Below, piece after piece: positions 1 through 63,990 of a stretch of DNA of 64,000 nucleotides. The notes beneath the pieces were generated by a model. The model ran no database searches and was not told the DNA's origin. It saw nothing but the letters and a program-made list of their open reading frames with translations. The stretch comes from Escherichia phage JES2013, in sequence record KC690136, one strand, 5' to 3'. Positions within the stretch are counted from its first letter, which is position 1. Each line of letters opens with the position of its first letter. The translations under genes and the position numbers were made by a program.

Positions 1-775
1 AGCTAATGCAGTCCTTAATTATCTCGGTATTCCGGAAGATCGGTGCGTGGGGGTACTTGGAGGCACAGGTAATTTCAGACTAGATCTTCCCATGCCGGAA
101 AGATATAAAGCCAACCGTAACAATACTCTTCGACCACTGCTGCTTGGAGATGCAAGACAGTATCTCCAAAAGCAGTATAATGCTCAAGTGATCAACGGTA
201 TCGAGGCTGATGACTGGTTAGCTATCCAGCAATTTGAAGGTTGGAACCACTACCAAAAAACAGGTAAGTTCAACAAGTTTATTATCTCTATTGATAAGGA
301 CCAAAGAACACTACCGGGGCTTGTGTTCGATCCCATGCGAAACGATAAGGGAGATTTTGTAAGGGAAACCCCTATGCTGATCGATAACGGTATGGGTAAC
401 ATCTTCATGAAGCCTAATGGAGAGGTTGGTGGTTACGGAATGCTGTTCTTCGGATACCAAATGCTGTGTGGTGACTCTGCTGACAACATCAAGCCGTATC
501 AAGGACTTATCGGTAAGGGTAAGTTCGGGGATGCCTCAGCATTCTACCTGCTGTCTCAGTGCAGCACTCCAAAGGAGATGTGGGTGGCTATTATTGATCA
601 GTACAAGAAGTGGTTCCCGAAAGGTGTTGTTAAGTATACTGATTTCAATGGTATTGATCGTAGAATTTCCGTAGGTCAGTGGATGAGTATAATTTTTGAC
701 TGTTTGTATATGAAGCGAACATTCAATGATCAAACAAAACTTGTTAACGTTCTTAGAAATGTTGGAGCAATTTGA
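1..775 (+). CDS. 5'-3' exonuclease / flap endonuclease (FEN, RNase H-like), 5'-partial
   Basis: Frame is open from window start; YKANR motif and H3TH-like GDSADNIKPYQGLIGKGK; stop TGA 773-775. Confidence 0.6.
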   Translation, partial: ANAVLNYLGIPEDRCVGVLGGTGNFRLDLPMPERYKANRNNTLRPLLLGDARQYLQKQYNAQVINGIEADDWLAIQQFEGWNHYQKTGKFNKFIISIDKDQRTLPGLVFDPMRNDKGDFVRETPMLIDNGMGNIFMKPNGEVGGYGMLFFGYQMLCGDSADNIKPYQGLIGKGKFGDASAFYLLSQCSTPKEMWVAIIDQYKKWFPKGVVKYTDFNGIDRRISVGQWMSIIFDCLYMKRTFNDQTKLVNVLRNVGAI

Positions 776-1107
776 TGACTAAAAACTCTGTAGATAGTGC
801 AATTATGGAAGCTGTTTTTGAGGATGATCATACAACAGGGGCCCTTAAAACAAAAAATACATTCGTTGTTGCCACAGGTATGTGGCGGTTGTATGAAGAT
901 GACACCATTTCATACATCCTGTACACAGATGATTACGCAGATGACCGTGTATGGTCTGCTGTTTTAAAAGAGGATTGTGAGTTGATTGAGGGCGAGCGGT
1001 TATGCATGTTCACCAGTGTGGAAACAGATGTTAAGCTTTGCTCTCTCGTCTTGTTCAAAGATAAGGCTTATGCTCCTGATGAAGGAGAGGAGGATGAGGA
1101 AGCATGA
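775..1107 (+). CDS. hypothetical acidic protein
   Basis: ATG overlaps upstream stop (TGATG); GGAG RBS; acidic C-terminus. Confidence 0.45.
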   Translation: MTKNSVDSAIMEAVFEDDHTTGALKTKNTFVVATGMWRLYEDDTISYILYTDDYADDRVWSAVLKEDCELIEGERLCMFTSVETDVKLCSLVLFKDKAYAPDEGEEDEEA

Positions 1108-3446: not shown

Positions 3447-3454
3447 CAAGTATA

Positions 3455-4746: not shown

Positions 4747-4950
4747 TTGGAGACCGCAATGACACTAAAGTTAACAGTTCCAGACAGCTTTTCAGAAAAC
4801 TTTATCCCAGAAATGATGGATAAGATGCGATCATTGCTTGATCAGATTGAAGAGGCTGTTTGGGAAGACGATGCTGTAGTGGCTAACGAGCTGGTAGATA
4901 AGTGTAAAAGTATTATTGATGCAGTTGAAGAATACCACGGAGGTTTTTGA
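4747..4950 (+). CDS. hypothetical small acidic protein
   Basis: GGAG RBS upstream; ATGA overlap with next gene. Confidence 0.45.
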   Translation: METAMTLKLTVPDSFSENFIPEMMDKMRSLLDQIEEAVWEDDAVVANELVDKCKSIIDAVEEYHGGF

Positions 4951-5564
4951 TGGATATTATTGTTCTTAACGCCCCACCTAGTAGTGGTAAGGATCACATT
5001 GCAGATCTCTTGTTGGAAGCTATTCCTAACTCACACCATCGTGAGGTTAAGGAGATGCTCTTCAGCGTGGCAATTAAGGCAGCTGGTGTAACTCCTCAAC
5101 TCTGGAATGCACTTTATGACCGCCACTACAAAGAAGAGCCTTGCCCTTTCTTAATGATAGACGGTAAGCATGTTTCTCCGCGAGAGTGGATGATCCATTG
5201 TAGTGAAAATCTGATTAAACCTATCTTTGGTGAAGATGCTTTCGGTAAGGCCGCAGTCACATCCTTGAAGAAAGATTTCCCTAAAGGTAAAGGGGTTGTT
5301 GTTTACTCCGATGGTGGATTCAAAGAGGAGCTGGCATGCCTTAGTGAGTACGCATACAGCACAGGTGGAGATCTGTTGTTGTTCCGTATTCACCGTGTTG
5401 GATATGACTGGGGAAATGATTCCAGAACCTATCTAAGTCTGGAAAAGAACGGAATAAAAGGGATTGAGTTCGATGTTGTAAATCCTGAAGGTGCACCTTG
5501 GGAATGTGCATCGGAGATTGTGTGCAAGTATATTGATGCTAAAGAGGCCCAAGAAGAATGTTAA
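4947..5564 (+). CDS. deoxynucleoside monophosphate kinase (T4 gp1-like P-loop kinase)
   Basis: N-terminal P-loop NAPPSSGKDHIAD resembles T4 dNMP kinase SGKDT. Confidence 0.45.
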   Translation: MMDIIVLNAPPSSGKDHIADLLLEAIPNSHHREVKEMLFSVAIKAAGVTPQLWNALYDRHYKEEPCPFLMIDGKHVSPREWMIHCSENLIKPIFGEDAFGKAAVTSLKKDFPKGKGVVVYSDGGFKEELACLSEYAYSTGGDLLLFRIHRVGYDWGNDSRTYLSLEKNGIKGIEFDVVNPEGAPWECASEIVCKYIDAKEAQEEC

Positions 5565-6152
5565 TCGGAATTGATGTAGATTTGACACTGGTAGATTCAG
5601 GAACAGCATGGTGGGAGTGGTTGGAGCGTTTGTATGGTCCAGCCAGTAAGACAGTCGTTAAACCTTCTAATGGGCTGATGTATTACGATCTGTCAAAGTA
5701 TTGGCCTGATCGCCCCAAAGAAAACATCATAGGACCTTTTGATTTCTGGAGTGATCCGTTCCTCTACGACTTTCTTAAGCCTGAAGAGGGGGGCTATTGA
5801 GGTTATGAAAGATTTGGTGGCTCGCGGTCACAAGCTCGCATTTATCTCGGTATGCAAGAAAGGTCACCTTGCATCTAAATCAAGGTTCTTAAAGCGTTGG
5901 ACCAGTGATTTTATGGATCTGGATGATCACACCCAGGGTCACGGCTTCTACGCCACACATTTTAAAGGAAATGTGGCTGTAGATGTTATAATTGACGACA
6001 GGCATGAATACCTGAACCAATTCGCTTCACGACCTGAAGTTATTAAAATCCTAAAAGATACGCCTTATGAGCAATTTGAGGAGTTAAAGGTCAGTGTTGA
6101 CTATACCGCTGATAGCTGGTATAAAATAGGAAAGTTTTTAGAAGGTATTTGA
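5558..6152 (+). CDS. 5'(3')-deoxyribonucleotidase (NT5C/HAD family), reading frame broken at G6 homopolymer 5788-5793
   Basis: Track ORFs 5558-5800 and 5739-6152 in different frames; DVDLT motif I in the first, K...W and DVIIDD in the second; removing one G restores LKPEEGAIEVM. Confidence 0.5.
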
Positions 6153-6153
6153 A

Positions 6154-6354
6154 ATGGGCAGATGTTCTAAAGGTGGCGATCCTGTAGTCAGATACGGTGA
6201 CTGGCTAGAGGTGTATGATCTGGGAGGTAAGCTAGTGTATGCCTCCAGGATCACCCAAGATATGTGCTCTGACATGTTTAACAGATACCTTGCATTTAAG
6301 GCCAACATAAACCCAGACGAAATTTCCAAAATTAAAACAAGGAGAGCTAAATAA
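6154..6354 (+). CDS. hypothetical small protein
   Basis: Track ORF; stop overlaps thyX start (TAATG). Confidence 0.4.
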   Translation: MGRCSKGGDPVVRYGDWLEVYDLGGKLVYASRITQDMCSDMFNRYLAFKANINPDEISKIKTRRAK

Positions 6355-7337
6355 TGCTAAAACTGTGCACTGCAAAGATTATTGCTGACAGCATTTCCGA
6401 GAAAGGTAAGCGTATCACCACTTTTGAACTAGAGTATCCTCGAATTATTCACTCAGAGCTTATGACGCACCGAGTGTTCAGCCGAAACGCCATGTCTTCC
6501 CGTGCAGTGCCTGTCGGCAAGATGCTGCAACAGATTGTGGAGAATCCGGCAATGCCAGTTCGCTTCGGTGTAAATAAGCGAGGGATGGAAGATGGTGGGG
6601 AACACGATCAAAAGATCCGTGTAGAGTACACTGACATGGAGTTAACTCCTGAAGAGTTTTGGAAAGAAGCTGCAAAAAACGCCGCTTGGCATGCAGAGAA
6701 GTTCGCCCTTGCTGGTTACCATAAGCAAGTATGTAACCGTTTAGTGGAGCCGTTTCAGCGCATGAAAACAGTTGTAACAAGCACAGAGTGGAATAATTTC
6801 TTCCATCTCCGTTGCTGGCACGATGCTGACCCTACTATTCAGATGTTAGCGAATTGCATGTGGGAGGCTCTTATGAATAGCACTCCTGAAATCCTTAAAC
6901 CTGGTCAATGGCACACACCATATGTAGAGCACGTTTATTTGGACGGCGAGTTTAACTATGCTGTACGTGACACAGAAGGAAAGCTTTGCATTCTCGATAC
7001 TGGAGAAGCTCTGTCTATTAGTGCTAGTTGCTGTGCACAAGTATCTTATCGAAATATTGACAGCACGTTTGAAAAGGCAGACAGTGTGGCTAAAAAACTA
7101 ATTGGTGGGGATCGTATTCATGCAAGCCCTTACGAGCACCAGGCAACACCTATGGATCATGATAACGCAATGGAACGTTTAAACTACTACCTGTCTTCAT
7201 GTGAAATCACACAAGACATTAGTACTTGGCAGGAAGGTGTAACCCATCAAGACCGTGATGGTAAATTCTGGTCTGCCAACTTTTGTGGGTGGGTTCAGCA
7301 CAGACAGCTGCTTAATAACCACTTCGTGAAAGGTTAA
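6354..7337 (+). CDS. thyX: flavin-dependent thymidylate synthase ThyX
   Basis: ThyX-like signature HRVFSRNAMSSRAVP; AGGAGAG RBS. Confidence 0.6.
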   Translation: MLKLCTAKIIADSISEKGKRITTFELEYPRIIHSELMTHRVFSRNAMSSRAVPVGKMLQQIVENPAMPVRFGVNKRGMEDGGEHDQKIRVEYTDMELTPEEFWKEAAKNAAWHAEKFALAGYHKQVCNRLVEPFQRMKTVVTSTEWNNFFHLRCWHDADPTIQMLANCMWEALMNSTPEILKPGQWHTPYVEHVYLDGEFNYAVRDTEGKLCILDTGEALSISASCCAQVSYRNIDSTFEKADSVAKKLIGGDRIHASPYEHQATPMDHDNAMERLNYYLSSCEITQDISTWQEGVTHQDRDGKFWSANFCGWVQHRQLLNNHFVKG

Positions 7338-11859: not shown

Positions 11860-13979
11860 AAGTTGTAAAACGGGACGGTAGAGAAGAGGTCTATAACGGA
11901 ATTAAGGTGATCAAGGCGGCAGAGTCCGCCTTACTTGAGTCTGGACATACTGAAGAAGAAGCTTACCGGATCGCCTGCGCGGTTAATGAAGTTGTTGCTA
12001 ACAATCTACCAACCGACCAGTGCACGATCTCTGTAAAAAATATCCATATCCTTGTTGAAGACGCTCTTATGGATATGGGTTTAAAATGTGCAGCCAGAGA
12101 ATACATCCAGTATAGGCAGACAAGAGATAATAACAGAGAGGCAGGTGGAAAACTGCTTGCAGATATTAGTGGCTTCTTGGATCGCACTTGTGATGAATTT
12201 ACAAAAGAAAACGCAAATAAGCCTACCAATCATGTACACACTCATCGTGACCTGCTTGCAGGCATCCTTAGCAAACACCTTGCATCAACACAGATCCTGC
12301 CAGACCGTGTCTCAGAAGAGCACAATAAAGGCTTCATCCATGTGCATGATCTTGACTACTTGATCAGTCCGTTAACAAACTGTTGTTTGGTAAATTATCC
12401 AGATATGTTGGAAAACGGATTCAACATTGGCAACGCCCATGTCAGTAAGCCGAAGTCAATAGGGGTTGCAACAACAATCCTTAGCCAAATCTCTAGTGCA
12501 GTAGCTAGTGCTCAATATGGAGGTCAGACTATGAGCCATATTGATCATTATCTGGCACAGTATGCTGAGGCGACCTATGAGAAGAATCTTAAATTTTGCC
12601 AGGAACACTGGTTGCCAGATGCTGAGACTGTTGCAATGCAAATGACAGATAAAGACGTATTTGACAGCATGCAGACTTTGCTCTATCAAATCAATACGTT
12701 AACCTCTGTCAACGGGCAAACTCCATTCATCACATTAAGTTTAGGACTGGATACCTCGGTCTTTGGTAGAATGATTACCAAAAACTACTTGAAAGTCCAC
12801 AAAATGGGTCTTGGTGAAGAACGTATCACACCTGTGTTCCCTAAAGTGCTGTTCTTCCTAGAAGAGGGTGTCAACATGAGCCCTGGAGATCCCAACTATG
12901 ATTTGAAACGATTAGCTCTGGAATGCTCTGCAGAGCGGATTTATCCTGACTTTGTTTCTGTTCCACTAAATCGTAAAGTGACAGGCTCGACAGATGGCAA
13001 AGTAACGAGCATGGGTTGCCGGAGTTTTCTTAGCAAATACAATGACTTGGAAACAGGCGAGGAGAAATACCTTGGTAGATTTAACTTAGGCGTTGTTAGC
13101 CTTAACCTGCCAATGATTGCGGCAAAAGCTAAAACGGAAGGTGTTGATTTCTTTGCAGTTCTTGACGAATACCTGGATCTTGCATACGAGGCTCACCTTG
13201 TAAGGGTTAACCGTCTAAAAGGAACAAAGGCAGGGCAGAACCCTATCATGTGGTGTGAAGGCGCTCTTGCTCGCCTGGATCCTGAAGAGAGTATTGATAA
13301 ACTCTTCTATGACGGGTACGCTTCCATCAGTATTGGGTATATTGGTGTGTATGAAACCTGTCAGATTTTGGGCAGGGAGGGTGACAAGGCTTTAGCTCTT
13401 GGAATACTCCAGCACATGAGAGATGCTTGTGAGCGATACAAGAAGGAAAGTAGACTAGCGTTTAGCTTGTACGGCACCCCTTCTGAGAGTCTATGCTATA
13501 AAGCTGCAACCTGTCTGGATCGTGAATATCCTGAAGTGTTGAAGCATGAGCATGAATACCTCACCAACAGTTTCCATCAGCCAGTATGGATAAATAGCTC
13601 TCCTTTTGATAAGTGGGAATACGAGGAAGGTTTTGCTATGATCTCCTCTGGTGGCAACATCGGATACGTAGAGACACCAAATCTGAAAAACAACTTAGAT
13701 GCTTTAGAGGCTCTTGTTGACTTCGGGTATAAACACATTATGTATTTTGGTATCAACCAGCCTGTGGATAAATGTCTTAAGTGTGGTTTCTCTGGTGAGT
13801 TCAGTGCAACAGCTAAGGGATTCGTATGCCCGGAGTGTGGAAACCATGAAGAGGGAACGATCAGTGTGATCAGACGTGTATCCGGGTACCTGTCTAGTCC
13901 AAACTCCCGTCCTTACAATAAAGGTAAGCAAGCGGAAGTTATAGAACGGGTTAAGCACTACGGAAGTTGTGGTTGCTGA
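11856..13979 (+). CDS. nrdD: anaerobic ribonucleoside-triphosphate reductase NrdD
   Basis: C-terminal glycyl-radical motif RVSGYL and CPECG zinc site; 707 aa. Confidence 0.85.
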   Translation: MKVVKRDGREEVYNGIKVIKAAESALLESGHTEEEAYRIACAVNEVVANNLPTDQCTISVKNIHILVEDALMDMGLKCAAREYIQYRQTRDNNREAGGKLLADISGFLDRTCDEFTKENANKPTNHVHTHRDLLAGILSKHLASTQILPDRVSEEHNKGFIHVHDLDYLISPLTNCCLVNYPDMLENGFNIGNAHVSKPKSIGVATTILSQISSAVASAQYGGQTMSHIDHYLAQYAEATYEKNLKFCQEHWLPDAETVAMQMTDKDVFDSMQTLLYQINTLTSVNGQTPFITLSLGLDTSVFGRMITKNYLKVHKMGLGEERITPVFPKVLFFLEEGVNMSPGDPNYDLKRLALECSAERIYPDFVSVPLNRKVTGSTDGKVTSMGCRSFLSKYNDLETGEEKYLGRFNLGVVSLNLPMIAAKAKTEGVDFFAVLDEYLDLAYEAHLVRVNRLKGTKAGQNPIMWCEGALARLDPEESIDKLFYDGYASISIGYIGVYETCQILGREGDKALALGILQHMRDACERYKKESRLAFSLYGTPSESLCYKAATCLDREYPEVLKHEHEYLTNSFHQPVWINSSPFDKWEYEEGFAMISSGGNIGYVETPNLKNNLDALEALVDFGYKHIMYFGINQPVDKCLKCGFSGEFSATAKGFVCPECGNHEEGTISVIRRVSGYLSSPNSRPYNKGKQAEVIERVKHYGSCGC

Positions 13980-14042
13980 TACTTGACAAAAGCCACAAGG
14001 ATGTGGCATATTATTGACACACAGTGAGCTAGGAGGTACAGT

Positions 14043-15192: not shown

Positions 15193-15981
15193 ATGGGTCG
15201 AGCTAAAGAAACAAAACGCATGCGTGATGAAGCTAGAGAGGCTCGCAAATCTGATCGCCTGCGTAAGGCTGCTGAGAAATTTGCTGACGAAAGAGAGCAC
15301 ACCGCTCCAGCTCTCCGACCAATGAATAAGAAGCAGCAAAAGTATCTTGATTATCTAGGGTCACGTAAGATTATCATTGTAAACGGTGTGTTTGGATCTG
15401 GTAAGACATTCATGGCATCTGCCTATGCAGGTGATCTTCTGCGTAAGAACGAGATTGATAAGATCATTGTTGCACGTCCTTACGTTCAGACAGGAAAGAC
15501 TTCAGGATTTAAACCTGGAAATGCAATGCAGAAACTGTGGCCCTATCTTCGAAGCATGATGGACACGATTTGTCGTCGTGTTGGCAAAGGTGCTTTTGCC
15601 GCAATGCTGGGAGACGGTCAGAACAGCCGTATCGAGATTTGTGAGGTTGAAAGCATTCGTGGTCGTAGTTTCGATGAGCGATGCTTTGTCCTGATTGACG
15701 AGGCACAGCAAACTAACCCTGAAGAAATGTTGTCAATTATCACAAGGATCTCTGATCAGGCCACCCTTGTAATTATGGGCGATAATAGCCAACGTGACAT
15801 CCCTGGTAAATCTGGCCTTGCATGGGTGACGGATTTCTTTACTCGTCATCCAGATCCTGAGGTTGGAATGATCAGCTTTGATAGTCCAGACGATGTTGTT
15901 CGTTCCGGGTTGGGTCGTCAGATTGCACTCAATCTTATTGAGGATCGTGCAAATCATATTTGGACCCCTGTTTCCGAGTAA
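15193..15981 (+). CDS. phoH: PhoH-like ATPase
   Basis: Walker A GVFGSGKT in PhoH context; GGAG RBS. Confidence 0.75.
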   Translation: MGRAKETKRMRDEAREARKSDRLRKAAEKFADEREHTAPALRPMNKKQQKYLDYLGSRKIIIVNGVFGSGKTFMASAYAGDLLRKNEIDKIIVARPYVQTGKTSGFKPGNAMQKLWPYLRSMMDTICRRVGKGAFAAMLGDGQNSRIEICEVESIRGRSFDERCFVLIDEAQQTNPEEMLSIITRISDQATLVIMGDNSQRDIPGKSGLAWVTDFFTRHPDPEVGMISFDSPDDVVRSGLGRQIALNLIEDRANHIWTPVSE

Positions 15982-16025
15982 TACAGAAGGGTGGTTATTC
16001 CACCCTTAGATATCTAAAACAGTTG

Positions 16026-16054
16026 TTGACAAACAGGTAAGATTTAGATATTAT
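16026..16054 (+). promoter_or_regulatory. sigma70-type promoter
   Basis: TTGACA (16026-16031), 17-nt spacer, TATTAT (16049-16054). Confidence 0.6.
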
Positions 16055-16084
16055 TACCGGACAAGACAAGGAGAAGGAGATAGT

Positions 16085-16396
16085 ATGGCTACAATACAAG
16101 AGAGACTGAATAAAATATACTGCCTGTTTGTCTATAACGGCGAGACAATTTTGGCAAATAAAGGATCCAAGAATGTGTGGATCAAGGACAGGGGTGGTAA
16201 TATAATCAACTTAGCGTTGCTACGTGAGCGCCGACACAGATTCTTTATCGAGTCTCGGATTATTGAAAGCAGCACCTGCTACAGAACAGGCGATAAAGTA
16301 ATTGTTGACAATGATACGTGGTATGTGGTAGACTGGCAATCATTGAGCTGTGATGCTTCTGACAATCGTAAGTATTCCCTAGTGATTGCTAAATAA
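16085..16396 (+). CDS. hypothetical protein
   Basis: AAGGAGAAGGAGA RBS then ATG. Confidence 0.5.
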   Translation: MATIQERLNKIYCLFVYNGETILANKGSKNVWIKDRGGNIINLALLRERRHRFFIESRIIESSTCYRTGDKVIVDNDTWYVVDWQSLSCDASDNRKYSLVIAK

Positions 16397-16456
16397 AGGT
16401 AAATGTGAATCAGGTTTAAATAAATAGCTTTCAACTTCCAATATTAAGGATTTCTC

Positions 16457-17506
16457 ATGAATTTAACACCTCGCAGCACCATGGTACACGGCATGAAAGA
16501 AAAACAGAACGGTTTCGAACCTATGAGTAATAAAATGTTTGGTATGCCGGGTGGTATTATGGAAACATACAGCTACCCAACACCTGTTGTTGACCACGTT
16601 CTTTATATCGACGATTTGGAAGACTTACAAGATCATATGTCTCGTCTGCAGACGATCCGTATGGCTCAGCCGGAAGAAAGCATTCGGGTGATCATCAATA
16701 GCCCTGGGGGTTGCGTGCACATTGCAATGGCTTATCTGCAGGCATTCCGCGAGTCTCAGGCAAGCGTTGTTGCACATGCTGAAGGGATGTGCTGCTCTGC
16801 TGGAACAATCTTATGGCTTGGTTGTAAAGAACGTACTGTGGCTCCGGACACAGAGTTTATGTTCCACTACTATCAAGGTGGCACTTATGGTAACGGTGTG
16901 AACATGAATACTCAGGTCAGCTACTGGAAAAAACGTTTTGAACGCCTGATCGAAAAATACTACGGTGGGGTGCTGACAGAAGATGAGATCGCATCCATCA
17001 CAGCTGGTGGCGAAGTGTGGTTGGACGGAGAAGAGCTGGCAGCACGCACTGGAGCTATTATTCTGGATGAAGGCAACATACAACGCATCCAGAACGGACA
17101 AAAACCGAAAAAGCTTCTGGCAAAAGGTGATGAAGAAGGCGTGTTAGGTGAAGCAGGTCTTCCGGAGATTCACCAGTGCACATCTTTAGATGAGTTAGTT
17201 CATGCTGTTGAATCTGCAAAAGCGGGTGGTTCGAAAGGTGATGTTCACACTGTGTTCCTGAATCTGCAGATGGAAAGTGGCGAGACCGTCAGAATTGCCC
17301 TGGGTGAGATTACTTCAGAAGATCTGCAGAGATTCTCTGTCGTTGAACTTCAGGATATTCTGTCTCAATTGAAGACTACTCTGAACGGCGGTGAAGAGGT
17401 TAAGGTGAAAGATAAGACGCGCAAGCGTCTGGTGGACAATATTATTAAAACAGCAAAAGAGCTCAATGAAAAAATCCTGGGTGCAGGAATTGTCGAAGAA
17501 GCTTAA
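16457..17506 (+). CDS. ClpP-like serine protease (S14 family) with C-terminal extension
   Basis: INSPGG motif, Ser in CCSAGT, His in MFHYYQGG, aligning with ClpP catalytic residues. Confidence 0.6.
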   Translation: MNLTPRSTMVHGMKEKQNGFEPMSNKMFGMPGGIMETYSYPTPVVDHVLYIDDLEDLQDHMSRLQTIRMAQPEESIRVIINSPGGCVHIAMAYLQAFRESQASVVAHAEGMCCSAGTILWLGCKERTVAPDTEFMFHYYQGGTYGNGVNMNTQVSYWKKRFERLIEKYYGGVLTEDEIASITAGGEVWLDGEELAARTGAIILDEGNIQRIQNGQKPKKLLAKGDEEGVLGEAGLPEIHQCTSLDELVHAVESAKAGGSKGDVHTVFLNLQMESGETVRIALGEITSEDLQRFSVVELQDILSQLKTTLNGGEEVKVKDKTRKRLVDNIIKTAKELNEKILGAGIVEEA

Positions 17507-18372: not shown

Positions 18373-18407
18373 TTATGTATTGTTGTTCTCAACAAGGGGG
18401 GTCATTT

Positions 18408-28933: not shown

Positions 28934-29095
28934 ATCTGGTGCACGATTGCATACCTTGGACAGATAATCTCCTTACAGAGCGTTTAAGAGCTTCCTACAA
29001 ACAACTCTCTTTTTCGAGCGTAGCGAGAACGCACGTCCGTTTTGACCAAAATCACCATACGCTCGGATTTTAACCAAACCCTCGCGGCGTTTCTG

Positions 29096-29124
29096 TTGAC
29101 ACATTGCCGCTCCAGTGATAATAT
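29096..29124 (+). promoter_or_regulatory. sigma70-type promoter
   Basis: TTGACA (29096-29101), 16-17-nt spacer, GATAAT/TAATAT. Confidence 0.5.
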
Positions 29125-29144
29125 CCACACATCATTTGGAGAAT

Positions 29145-29246
29145 ATGGAATACACAATGAAAACATTGTCCGAAGTTTTAGTGGTGATCCTGATGATCAT
29201 TACGTCCATAGCGGCTGTTGCCGGAATACTCACGGGTGGAACATGA
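29145..29246 (+). CDS. small hydrophobic peptide (33 aa)
   Basis: GGAG RBS then ATG 29145; MEYTMKTLSEVLVVILMIITSIAAVAGILTGGT. Confidence 0.35.
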   Translation: MEYTMKTLSEVLVVILMIITSIAAVAGILTGGT

Positions 29247-29455
29247 TCAACACACATGCATCTGAAGAGACATCAAAAGGAGTGACTATATGTCCCTTGG
29301 CTGAGCCAGTGAAAGAGGAAAACTTCGATTCTGAAGATTCTCCATCTTCGCTCCAGGTAGACCCTGAGGCTGATGACCTAACGTGGGAAGACATCGTAGA
29401 TATCTGGTTCTCTGTTATGCCTGAGCACGAAGAGTTCAGGGGTGGTAGACTATGA
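29243..29455 (+). CDS. small acidic protein (70 aa)
   Basis: Internal ATG of track ORF 29042-29455; the upstream part overlaps a promoter and the small peptide gene. Confidence 0.3.
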   Translation: MINTHASEETSKGVTICPLAEPVKEENFDSEDSPSSLQVDPEADDLTWEDIVDIWFSVMPEHEEFRGGRL

Positions 29456-29495
29456 AGCACCGAGCCCACACAAGTTCCTCATGCTAAAGCATGGC

Positions 29496-30682
29496 CTGAA
29501 GAGGCAAACGTGCATAATTCCTGTGCATCGGAACGTATGAAACCTTGTTCACACTCTCATTTCCAGAGGAGATTTTATGAAGATAGAAATATTTGGTGGA
29601 GCTGACAACACTCGTGGCCTGATTTACCTTGAATTCGATGAATCATACCTACCAGAGGTGTTAAATATAGACTCTGTTGCGGAGGCTTTGGGAGTAAACC
29701 CTAAAGAACTCCACTCTTGTGCTGAGATCGATGGTTGGGAAGAGACCATGAACATTGATTTCAGTGAAGTAGAGGATGAACCGCTGGACTGACACACAAT
29801 TAGCTGCCCGGCTAAAGTGCTGGAAGCACCTATAACACATCTTTCAACTAAATTTCCCACCACAACAATCACTTACCTCCCATACATGACTGTTTGCTTG
29901 TTTAGTGAGCAGTCATGCCTTGACATTCTTGCCTATCCTGATAAAATTAAGTTCTTCTCTTTTCTTTTACCGAGTAATTCGGGTTTTCTGTTCTCTTCGG
30001 TTTGAAGGGGTATGGAGATACACCTGAGTGAACAGGGTGAACAACCGAACATTTGGCTATGGCATTAGCATGGCGAAGCGGACGGGTGACGAAAGAGGGG
30101 CCGGAGGACACCAGTCACTGCCATATGGTATATGGGTGATAACCTGAAGAGTCTGAATAAGTGTTTAAGTACCAGTCAGAGGAAAAGGTGAATGGTAGCC
30201 GAAGGGGGAGGGGGGTTTCTTGTATCTTTAATTTGTATATTATGTATACACTTGTAAACCAATCTCATTTGAATTTGTTTACCACACAAAGTGGATAGAG
30301 ACAAATATTACCTATTAAACTTGAATTATTTATAGAAAATACCACAACACTACTTAAGTCTTTGATTTTACACACAAATCCTGCAGATATTCACCCTCCA
30401 TATTTAACATACTTGTAACATATTCCATACTCTACCTGCCCGATCAATTCACCCAACTACATCCCCATATTTTCCCTGTCTGTACTACCCCTGCCCCGCC
30501 GGGAGTCCCGTCATATCTGGCTTTCCAGCAAATATCACACCCACAAATATCATTGCCTGAAGAGGGTTTCGTCCCATAATACATGCCTTACCTGAAGAGC
30601 GCTTCATATACCCCGTAAATTTTTTAATTGACCCCCTCCCCGCCGCCGGAGGGGTCGGCTTTTCCCACACAGACCTGAAGAG
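29496..30682. repeat. five dispersed copies of 9-mer CCTGAAGAG
   Basis: Exact copies at 29496, 30143, 30556, 30591, 30674. Confidence 0.5.
29577..29792 (+). CDS. small acidic protein
   Basis: GAGGAG RBS; MKIEIFGG start; last gene of the + block. Confidence 0.5.
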   Translation: MKIEIFGGADNTRGLIYLEFDESYLPEVLNIDSVAEALGVNPKELHSCAEIDGWEETMNIDFSEVEDEPLD

Positions 30683-41975: not shown

Positions 41976-42173
41976 TTATTTTTTATTAAACCAGTGATTG
42001 ATCTGACCTTTTGTCAGGGCGCAACGATTAAGCTGTTGCAGGGTATAGCTATGACCGCGACGAAATTTATAAAGGCCTTGCCCGTTGTTGATGGTTACAT
42101 CCACCAGGCAAACCACTTGATCGGTGACCACCTGGCGAGTGTTGCGACGTACTTTGATTCCGTATGCGTTCAT
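41976..42173 (-). CDS. hypothetical small protein
   Basis: Track ORF. Confidence 0.4.
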   Translation of the reverse strand: MNAYGIKVRRNTRQVVTDQVVCLVDVTINNGQGLYKFRRGHSYTLQQLNRCALTKGQINHWFNKK

Positions 42174-42251
42174 GATTTTTTATCCTCTCTGTTAATTAGT
42201 GTGGTGTTGTTCACCTTGCGAGGATAAGAATAACAAGAACTGTCCGAGCTG

Positions 42252-46490: not shown

Positions 46491-46907
46491 TCAACAGAAA
46501 ACTTCAACAAATTCTTCCACAGTTTTAATGTCGTGGGAAAAAGGTTTACGGCTATAACGGGCAATAGCACTATCAACCACCGCCCGGTACTCCAAATCTT
46601 CAGAATATTTCATGAAGCATTGCAGCGTCTCTGGGCAGATAGCTAAATAGCTCCACCACCCCTCTTCAGATTGGTAGTCGAATCCCATACTCTCCAACCA
46701 TGAAGCATATACTCCTGCACCCTCTAGCCAGTGGGTATTTTCATCAAGAAATTTATTCACCGACATGTGTGCTTCCAGGCACTCGTCAAGCTCTTTTCCG
46801 TTAACCAGCCATGCACTGACTGTGGCGCATCCGAGGTCTACAGATTGAGTTGACAGGTTGTATTGGTCATAGTTCTCAGGTTTAACAATGATATCTTCTA
46901 ATGTCAT
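46491..46907 (-). CDS. hypothetical protein
   Basis: Track ORF. Confidence 0.45.
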   Translation of the reverse strand: MTLEDIIVKPENYDQYNLSTQSVDLGCATVSAWLVNGKELDECLEAHMSVNKFLDENTHWLEGAGVYASWLESMGFDYQSEEGWWSYLAICPETLQCFMKYSEDLEYRAVVDSAIARYSRKPFSHDIKTVEEFVEVFC

Positions 46908-47593: not shown

Positions 47594-48836
47594 ATTGCAG
47601 ACCTACCGGAGCGAAAGGAATGTCATCACAGAAGTCATACTGTGCTGGATTCTGATCCATCGGGTCATCTTCCTCATCATTTACAGGAGGAGCGTCTACA
47701 GTGTTTTGCTGTGGAGCTGTTTCCTGTTTGGCAGCCTGAGGTTCTTGATGGTCAGTTGACCCAGCACCGTTCTTGATCCAATCGTACAACGGCTCAGCCA
47801 GATTAGTCAAGACATCTTTTGCTTCTGCAGTAATTGCCGCTGCAAAATCATCAACTTTCGTTTTCTTGTCAATACGGCGACAAGCGTTCAACACCGCATT
47901 ACCGACACTGGCACCTACTTCATCTTCAGTTCGGTTGGTGGCTTGAGCATACTCTTTCTTAAGCTCAATGGTGACTACGTGCAGTGTTTTAGCCACGCCC
48001 AGTGGGTCGTCTACCTTAAACCCGCGATCCAGGATGATCTGCAACGCATTGATGCTATGCCCCGTTTCCACACCGATAGGGTCGTAAGAGGATTTACGCT
48101 TGCCACCAGAGCCTTGAGTGCCGTTCTCTGCCTTAGGAGGATAGGCCTTGAAACCACTGATAATGTTTCCGGTGTCTTTGTCAACAATGGCTGCAACACG
48201 ACCACCTACCACCAGGTCTTTAAGCTGCTCATCAGTTACAACCATAGCACCTTCGCCAATCTTGTGGTCATTAACAGTAACCACGTTGCCAACAATCTGA
48301 GTCACATCACCATAGATGCGTAAAACGTCCTGATTGGCATTCTGCTGAGGTTTCTGCTTCTGGCCTTGTGATTGTGCACCTTGTTGCTGTTTTTGCTGCT
48401 GAGTCGCTGCTGGAGCCTCTCCTGCACCCAGCTTAACCATCTTAGCCAGTGAGCCCTTGTAATAGGTCTTACCGTTATGCTCGTTTGCCTTCAAAGGGAT
48501 ATTTACGATCCATCCTGGCGTTACGGTTTCCCACTTGTCATCAATCTTAACAGAGACAGAGTCTTGATGACCTGGTTTAAGCAGCTTATCACCCATGCTG
48601 ATCCAGACTTCTTCACCACCTTGAAGCAGGTTATCAGAGGAATCCAGTTCAGAAATCAGTAAAGAGATGGTGTGGCTGGATTCAATTTTCTTACCTTGCC
48701 ACACAGTGGTTTTAATACCTGTTGTAGGATCAGCACCTTTGATAGGCTTGATGCTAACACGTTTAATCATGCCGTGAGCCAGTAAAACAGTTTCACGCGG
48801 ATTCATTGGGTTAGCGAATTGTTGAATAACGCTCAT
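47565..48836 (-). CDS. putative ssDNA-binding protein (SSB-like DDIPF motif, Gln-rich linker)
   Basis: YDFCDDIPF near C-terminus resembles SSB acidic tail; long Q-rich segment. Confidence 0.3.
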
Positions 48837-49201
48837 TATTTGTCTCCTTGTTCTTCGTTAGTGCTTGCCGTGTGTGCGAACCCTGCTTGAATTAATTTGT
48901 CCTGAACTTGAGCCAACAGGCCCATTGCAAAACTTGTGGTCCCAGAGAGGGCCATCAGCATATCCCGTTGTTGAGCTACCCAACCTAAGGCATAGTCCAA
49001 ACGACGATATTTTTCTTCTTCACGCAAAGCTTGGAATAATTGTTCAGCCTCTGGCTGTTGTGTGAGCTCCTGAAGTCTTCCCATGAAAGAAGAAAGCACT
49101 AGCAAAAGAGACACTTGATCTTTACTTAACCCTAAGAAAAATTCTTGAGGTTGTTCTTGCTCGTTCATCGCAACCGACTCTTGATCGTTCATTTGTTCCA
49201 T
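48836..49201 (-). CDS. hypothetical protein
   Basis: Track ORF, coupled to upstream gene. Confidence 0.45.
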   Translation of the reverse strand: MEQMNDQESVAMNEQEQPQEFFLGLSKDQVSLLLVLSSFMGRLQELTQQPEAEQLFQALREEEKYRRLDYALGWVAQQRDMLMALSGTTSFAMGLLAQVQDKLIQAGFAHTASTNEEQGDK

Positions 49202-62785: not shown

Positions 62786-63990
62786 TACGCCTCCTCGTAA
62801 AGAATGTCGATAGTGTTACCGTCTCGGTCAACCACGTATTCAATCGGGTCTCCGTCCTTGCGTGCTTCCGGAGCTACCACAATCTCATAGCGGCATGCAC
62901 GGCACTTAGCGCTATTGTGTTGGTATGGCACACTAACCACATCTGCAGGGTCAACCATGACAGTCATTACAGTGCCGTAGCTCTTCGCATACTCTTTGCT
63001 GGCGCAGTGTAAGCCATAGGAGCACGCAGCTTCAGGATCATCCTCTACAAAGTTACGAGGCATGGATACAAAAGCACCTTGGTATTGTGGGACTTTACCA
63101 CTGTGCCAATCCACCCACTTGCTACCGTTAAACTGAACCCCTTTGTAGCAAATGATTCGACCATCTTCTGCAATCTGAATATCATTGGCCTGCATAAAAT
63201 CGTAGAGCATGTTTACAGATTTTGCAGAAGGATTGCGTAGCAGGCGAACGAGGAATTTCACATAGCGGTCATCCAGCGTTCCGTCTGCATAATCTTTCTC
63301 AATTTTCTTTGCAATGGTGGATCGCATCTCTACACCGTAGTAGTAGAGCTTACCATCTTTCATGATCAGGTTGTCTGCAAGTGTGGTGAACTCATTCTTG
63401 CGTTCCAGCCAGACAAGGATTTCACCAATTGCCTCGTCATATTCCTGAACAGAGATATGGTCGAAGACTTTCTGGTAAACTTCCTCACTTTCGCTGCGGC
63501 GAATTTCAAAAATGCCTTCGTTGCAGGTGATCTGGAGGAGTTCACCACAAATAACTACCAAAGGCTCGATGCTTCGAGTCTGTTGCTGAGACACACTGCT
63601 CACCACCTCCAGCACCGGATCTTTGACTTCTACTAAAGGTTCTTCTGACTTGATTGCTACCCCAGTGAACCCCACACCGTGAACAACACACAGTGGGTAT
63701 ACCACGCCCCAACGTTTAACGGAACCTTCGCCTAAATCTAAGATCATAGCGTACTTACCGTTATCTTCCAGACCGTATCGAAATAAACGGGCCTCTTCGC
63801 GGGTTTCAAAATCCTCACGGGTGTAGCAGACGCTGTCACGGTCAGGATCGAACAACTCTGGGGCACCAACTGCCAGTGTCCAGGTTGTGTCGCCTTTCTC
63901 AATGGCACATGTGAAACCCTTCTTCTCAAGTTCTGCACGGCGGTCTCGTGCTTCTTTACGGGTTTTGAAATGTTCGTAGATGAAAATCAT
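62785..63990 (-). CDS. hypothetical protein (401 aa), first gene of replication block in window
   Basis: GGAG RBS 6 nt before ATG 63990; no motif recognised with confidence. Confidence 0.5.
   Translation of the reverse strand: MIFIYEHFKTRKEARDRRAELEKKGFTCAIEKGDTTWTLAVGAPELFDPDRDSVCYTREDFETREEARLFRYGLEDNGKYAMILDLGEGSVKRWGVVYPLCVVHGVGFTGVAIKSEEPLVEVKDPVLEVVSSVSQQQTRSIEPLVVICGELLQITCNEGIFEIRRSESEEVYQKVFDHISVQEYDEAIGEILVWLERKNEFTTLADNLIMKDGKLYYYGVEMRSTIAKKIEKDYADGTLDDRYVKFLVRLLRNPSAKSVNMLYDFMQANDIQIAEDGRIICYKGVQFNGSKWVDWHSGKVPQYQGAFVSMPRNFVEDDPEAACSYGLHCASKEYAKSYGTVMTVMVDPADVVSVPYQHNSAKCRACRYEIVVAPEARKDGDPIEYVVDRDGNTIDILYEEA

Follow-up and report, generated by a model that had tools for sequence, protein, structure and literature searches.

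A G-run frameshift, probably a recent insertion, in an NT5C-like phosphatase gene of Escherichia phage JES2013

The locus and its reading frames

The window analysed here is a 64,000-nucleotide stretch of Escherichia phage JES2013 (record KC690136). A frameshifted gene for an NT5C-like HAD phosphatase, the ortholog of rV5 ORF104, lies on its plus strand at 5558–6152 and measures 595 nt, against 594 nt in rV5. Upstream is a dNMP kinase-like gene (4947–5564, plus strand; PHROG 139, E 2.6e-44), whose last 7 nt overlap the beginning of the nucleotidase gene. Downstream is the gene for the thymidylate synthase ThyX (6354–7337, plus strand; Pfam Thy1), followed in the annotation by nrdA, nrdB, grx and nrdD. 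Because the gene adjoins the dNMP kinase-like gene, ThyX and the nrd genes, it is natural to suppose that its enzyme would dephosphorylate dNMPs and so balance the dNMP pool within this cluster.

Read directly, the sequence has six G at 5788–5793, in the context CCTGAAGAGGGGGGCTATTGAGG, and positions 5780–5800 are CCT GAA GAG GGG GGC TAT TGA. Relatives have five G (GAG GGG GCT), a difference of one inserted base. The insertion brings a premature UGA into frame at 5798–5800. The resulting N-terminal ORF (5558–5800, plus strand, 80 aa) covers strand 1 with motif I and the cap region. It begins MLIGIDVDLTLV (MLIGIDVDLT...) and terminates LKPEEGGY*, where GGY is out-of-frame sequence before the UGA. 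HAD motif I, DVDLT, with the nucleophile Asp6 and Asp8, is at 5573–5587 (plus strand).

The remaining motifs are found in another frame. A C-terminal fragment of 115 aa, present in the JES2013 annotation and in Logan assemblies, runs from an ATG at 5805 to 6152 (plus strand) and contains motif II (FIS, with the S at 5847–5849), the invariant lysines and motif IV. Motif IV, DVIIDD, is at 5982–5999 (plus strand); when aligned with human mitochondrial deoxyribonucleotidase (mdN), it falls on LIDDR. A TTG-start ORF in the ORF table (5739–6152, 137 aa) overlaps this fragment and includes AFISVC, LKRW and DVIIDD. No uninterrupted frame joins the four motifs, as the G6 run puts motif I and motifs II–IV in separate frames. 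If one G is deleted, a fused product of 197 aa results, containing LKPEEGAIEVMKDL.

The initial annotation had described this arrangement from the sequence, and its reading of the frames is borne out. The ORF table has motif I in the ORF at 5558–5800 and both the K..W motif (as LKRW) and DVIIDD in that at 5739–6152. Removing one G fuses the two and restores LKPEEGAIEVM. The proposed one-base insertion in the G run also agrees with direct alignment to rV5, 241Ecol014PP and phiWec193, in which the extra G is the sole length difference. This alignment and the Pfam match of the repaired protein, given below, show that the likeness is not due to chance.

Family and likely fold of the repaired protein

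The repaired 197-aa protein matches Pfam NT5C (PF06941) at 27.7 bits (E 3e-6), where the gathering cutoff is 24.8. Neither fragment reaches this level: the N-terminal fragment alone has no Pfam match, and the C-terminal fragment scores 17.1 bits on NT5C. PHROG 420, described as 'unknown function', also matches the repaired protein (E 1e-46), and the homologs P0001 and P0004–P0008 carry a precomputed PF06941 assignment.

In an alignment of seven homologs (47–95% identity), the expected catalytic positions are invariant. These are D6, D8 and T10 of motif I; S97 of motif II; K107 and K112, either of which could be the catalytic lysine of motif III; and D146–D147 of motif IV, which align to LIDDR of mdN. 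A phmmer search of PDB sequences with the single repaired protein found nothing. The profile of the seven homologs, through which alone mdN was reached, has human mdN and cdN as its top matches (1mh9, 4mwo and 1z4i at E of about 1.5e-3). The profile alignment crosses the interrupted segment, with LKPEEGAIEVMKDL set against LEPLPGAVEAVKEM of mdN.

For structure we used an AF2 model of the intact ortholog P0001, which is 95% identical (pLDDT 81). The model has a Rossmannoid core fold, with motif I at the end of strand 2–6 and S97 at the end of strand 92–97. Residues 14–72 are placed where the small helical C1 cap, which shapes nucleoside specificity in this family, is expected between motifs I and II; they are modelled with low confidence (pLDDT 61–75) and with only three short helices. 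Foldseek with this model gave 41 PDB matches at E<=1e-3. The best were 3bwv (deoxyribonucleotidase-like) and mdN 4mwo, at TM 0.63–0.73, and those among the matches listed (ranks 1–50) are HAD-type proteins or designed enzymes, some on an mdN scaffold. The NT5C-type label of the initial annotation thus holds at the level of family, with a Pfam score just above threshold and 5'(3')-deoxyribonucleotidases as the nearest structures. At that level we regard the protein as a putative NT5C-type HAD phosphatase, for which Mg-dependent dephosphorylation of dNMPs would be the predicted activity.

Human NT5M/mdN and NT5C/cdN (PF06941; 1mh9, 4mwo, 2i7d) and the Staphylococcus epidermidis protein 3bwv have the HAD fold in common with this protein, along with the DxDxT, S/T, K and DD motifs, at only about 15% identity. 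Human mdN also conserves the L-x-P-x-x-G-A-x-E segment, the one that the frameshift interrupts here.

Among phages, Bacillus phage PBS1 has a characterised dTMP phosphatase of family PF06941, Dtm, which acts on the dNMP pool and which PBS1 uses to keep thymine out of its dU-DNA (PMC12697855). Our gene is likened to Dtm through their common Pfam family. Removal of dTMP for base replacement is unlikely here, since ThyX is encoded next door. The deoxynucleoside-5'-monophosphatase Dmp of phage T5 (T5.001; 124–858, minus strand) is a possible functional analogue and also has a DxDxT motif, DLDGT, near its N-terminus. No homology to T5 Dmp was detectable: hhalign gave a probability of 0.14 with only a 9-residue stretch at motif I aligned, and Dmp has no Pfam family match at E<=0.01. 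The two genes also differ in setting, as Dmp belongs to the pre-early genes of the terminal repeat and the gene here to a nucleotide-metabolism cluster.

Run length in relatives and the origin of the sixth G

At this locus the window matches KP869102.1, E. coli O157 typing phage 4, with 100% identity, as it does over its first 30 kb; typing phage 4 is a Vequintavirus, an rV5-like myovirus. More than 100 further rV5-like phages are 97–98.6% identical to the region. In each of the 39 other matches listed, the match spans 900 bases against 901 here. The rV5 ORF104 product (ABI79170.1; rv5_gp100), annotated 'HAD-like hydrolase domain' and also 'haloacid dehydrogenase', and its Vequintavirus orthologs are found at the same locus, flanked by the dNMP kinase-like gene and ThyX. 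With the extra G taken out, the gene here is about 98% identical to them in DNA and 98–99.5% in protein. They have one 594-nt ORF with G5, where JES2013 has G6 and ORFs of 80 and 115/137 aa; rV5, 241Ecol014PP and phiWec193 all carry the locus as a single 594-nt CDS.

We compared run lengths across records with 22-nt flanks, chosen so that the 28-nt megablast word must cover the entire G run. In the phage collection searched, which does not include JES2013, the G6 50-mer has an exact match in KP869102.1 only, and the G5 49-mer matches at least 106 phage records; about 10 of the 118 related records gave no run-length call, because flank SNPs block the 28-mer word match. The other match to the G6 query is phage Gotham (MT682716.1; 1001–1049), which reads GAAGGGGGGGCT. 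There an A-to-G substitution (Glu to Gly) gives an in-frame G7 within a single annotated ORF, so the run can grow without loss of frame. Searched as 27-mers, G6 gave no match and G5 one match in IMG/VR; in JGI metagenomes the counts were 0 for G6 and 3 for G5, and in GTDB genomes 0 for both. A tblastn search with the repaired protein found homologs in 698 phage records (Vequintavirinae, Phapecoctavirus-like, ICP1, Vi1-like and others), and 60 of 60 sampled matches are in a single piece. The comparison with orthologs that the initial annotation had proposed therefore gives at least 106 records with G5 and one intact ORF in every relative examined.

Between about 19 and 24 unannotated 'Campylobacter phage' records (MG0656xx, host C. 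jejuni) are 97–98% identical to the E. coli rV5-like phages here, which looks like mislabelling or contamination.

The G6 call is a consensus-level one, made from GenBank records and assemblies. The exact 80-aa and 115-aa products are annotated in JES2013 (AGM12487.1 and AGM12488.1; 136,910 bp), and the exact 80-aa product is annotated in typing phage 4 (AKE45448.1). The 80-aa product occurs on five contigs: a GenBank record, the Logan assemblies SRR1391163, SRR1391165 and SRR8399272, and one more long contig. All five are 100% identical to the window and have G6. SRR1391163 and SRR1391165 are probably runs of the typing-phage project, since their accessions are adjacent; SRR8399272 belongs to a distinct accession series. 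JES2013 and typing phage 4 are identical save for clustered variant patches at typing phage 4 contig ends. Being nearly one genome, they count as independent sequencing efforts and not as independent lineages.

The initial annotation had left three options: a sequencing error, a genuine inactivating mutation or slippage-dependent expression. The first would mean that the phage truly has G5 and an intact gene. Its appeal is that the lesion lies in a homopolymer, that no relative shares G6, that the gene has no further decay, and that the scaffold of the typing phage 4 record is rough, its contigs separated by 100-N gaps and ending in redundant variant sequence. Against it, two GenBank genomes deposited by different submitters both have G6, and so do three read sets assembled independently through a different pipeline. 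The typing phage 4 data are 150-bp Illumina MiSeq pairs, with Velvet as the assembler (PMC4429339). In typing phages 5 and 14, sister phages sequenced in that project, the run is G5. Illumina MiSeq is not known to miscall a run of 5–6 nt at the consensus level. A tblastn search with the ORFs of relatives found this to be the sole broken annotated gene above 100 aa in about 48 kb, which indicates an assembly without general homopolymer noise. Relative to rV5 and ECML-10, the conserved first 14 kb contain three indels whose length is not a multiple of three: the one described here and two intergenic ones, at 3447 and 10482. We therefore consider a homopolymer sequencing or assembly error quite improbable. 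The genuine mutation is the favoured option. None of the relatives examined carries the shift site, and this refutes slippage-dependent expression as a conserved feature.

A second apparent homopolymer frameshift, at 42176–42182 in the homolog of rV5 ORF196, was rejected once the minus strand had been read. At 42170–42182 on the minus strand, A6 (A7 in rV5 and ECML-10) separates the ribosome-binding site GAGAGGA from the ATG of a 65-aa gene, so the difference is a change in 5'-UTR length. The 94-aa annotation of ORF196 in rV5 begins farther upstream, within sequence that overlaps the promoter annotated for it; it is probably over-extended. Outside coding sequence, a second variable G run (18397–18403) sits between ECTP4_00591 and 00592, just ahead of a small gene; it exceeds that of ECML-10 by one G and also differs from rV5.

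In KP869102.1, 100-N gaps link contigs whose order is not colinear with the window and whose ends are redundant. The window has no N gaps, and KP869102.1 shows its 100-N gaps exactly where the window runs on. The variant patches against KP869102.1 are dense SNP clusters, at window positions 28958–29883, 46662–46833, 48424–49055 and 63544–63868. They suggest that the typing phage 4 library was a mixed population or was cross-contaminated with a sister phage. Together with the redundant contig ends, this would account for the inflated 141.7-kb length of the typing phage 4 record.

Consequence of the insertion and other lesions

We think it likely that the sixth G is a genuine, recent and strain-specific G5-to-G6 insertion in the NT5C-like gene of the JES2013/typing phage 4 strain, and that the enzyme is inactivated by it. 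That the insertion is recent follows from the repaired protein, which is 99–99.5% identical to intact orthologs and differs from them by 1–2 residues. Translation from the normal start would stop after 80 residues, at the UGA two codons beyond the run, and the product would retain the cap region as well as the catalytic Asp-x-Asp motif. Motifs II–IV are in the other frame; the most that could be translated from them is a separate fragment of 115 aa, started at ATG 5805, which would lack the nucleophile. Such a fragment could arise by reinitiation, because ATG 5805 is 4 nt past the UGA and the G-rich run lies 11 nt upstream of the ATG. Since neither fragment has a complete active site, enzyme activity in the G6 strain is most likely lost or nearly so.

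Two readings would keep the enzyme active. The full-length protein might still be produced if ribosomes shifted by +1 or if RNA polymerase slipped at the run. Within G6, a Gly-tRNA reading GGG can re-pair perfectly on GGG in the +1 frame and would yield exactly the wild-type sequence, and the in-frame stop two codons downstream would make ribosomes pause. Superficially, the layout AGGGG-GGC-UAU-UGA also resembles that of E. coli prfB, whose site is AGGGGG-UAU-CUU-UGA, so that a prfB-like event would be an alternative. Here too there is an SD-like G-rich element (AGGGG), a short spacer (3 nt), a sense codon (UAU) and an in-frame UGA. In prfB, however, the P-site codon is the slippery CUU. The UAU that stands before the UGA here has a tRNA that is unable to re-pair on AUU, and GGG is followed by GGC, a common codon. 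Efficient transcriptional slippage typically takes a homopolymer of about 8–9 nt or more, and the run of 6 nt is well short of that. The shift site is missing in every relative examined, which refutes an evolved device; the prfB-like layout, not conserved in relatives, arose by accident from the insertion. With an expected yield of a percent or so at most, continued production of the full-length enzyme is improbable.

The other reading is a split enzyme, in which the 80-aa fragment and a 115-aa fragment reinitiated at ATG 5805 would associate non-covalently and keep activity. In the P0001 model the break falls at residues 78–79, a domain boundary just before helix 79–88, where the chain returns from cap to core. 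Termination–reinitiation at the nearby ATG is plausible, and gene callers predict both fragments. But the relatives are all fused and offer no precedent, the split is confined to one strain with no selection for it to be seen, and the first fragment finishes with two out-of-frame residues. We rate a functional split enzyme as very improbable indeed. On the preferred reading, a genuine insertion, the lesion amounts to unremarkable pseudogenisation within a known enzyme family.

The paired entries AGM12487/8 in JES2013 and AKE45448/9 in typing phage 4, listed as 'hypothetical proteins', are better merged into a single frameshifted pseudogene belonging to the rV5 ORF104 family. The G6 strain was propagated as a typing phage, so the gene would appear to be dispensable under those conditions. 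The G6 allele would then be a natural knockout, showing that an rV5-like phage can grow on laboratory E. coli O157 without this widely conserved NT5C-like phosphatase. As homologs of the enzyme occur in those 698 phage records, the G5/G6 pair could serve for a clean comparison of its role. Beyond the corrected annotation and the value of the natural knockout, the finding matters little.

There is a small chance that the case goes further: the accidental G6-GGC-UAU-UGA context may give appreciable +1 read-through, for instance by Gly-tRNA re-pairing on the overlapping GGG with help from the SD-like G run and the close stop, or the gene may be repeatedly knocked out in rV5-like phages. With read-through, the strain would be a leaky hypomorph and not a null, and would hold a natural, freshly born recoding site. 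Repeated knockout would be a hint that selection acts against the enzyme in some settings.

A look-up with the 115-aa fragment of a sister allele returned other Vequintavirus contigs with independent lesions in the same nucleotidase gene. SRR9866658 has W49* (TGG to TGA), ERR13318355 has a C4-to-C3 deletion near nt 156, and vB_Eco_Alma (OV101294.1) has a +A insertion at nt 178. The vB_Eco_Alma record is probably error-prone, because ThyX is also split there, into 93 and 233 aa. An apparent fourth lesion, a 28-nt deletion in an ENA contig, was an artefact: a run of N from scaffolding. The ThyX cluster also has truncated members, such as one of 191 aa on a 138.8-kb contig, so the nucleotidase gene cannot be claimed to be hit more often than its neighbours. 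In this small sample, no enrichment of nucleotidase over ThyX disruption is evident.

Further along the cluster, ECML-10 has insertions of about 0.8 kb and 1.2 kb (13197–13993 and 15287–16491) relative to the window, at window positions of about 12715 and 14010–14030, inside or after nrdD. The nrdD of ECML-10 is annotated as truncated, and the insertions may be introns or homing-endonuclease insertions.
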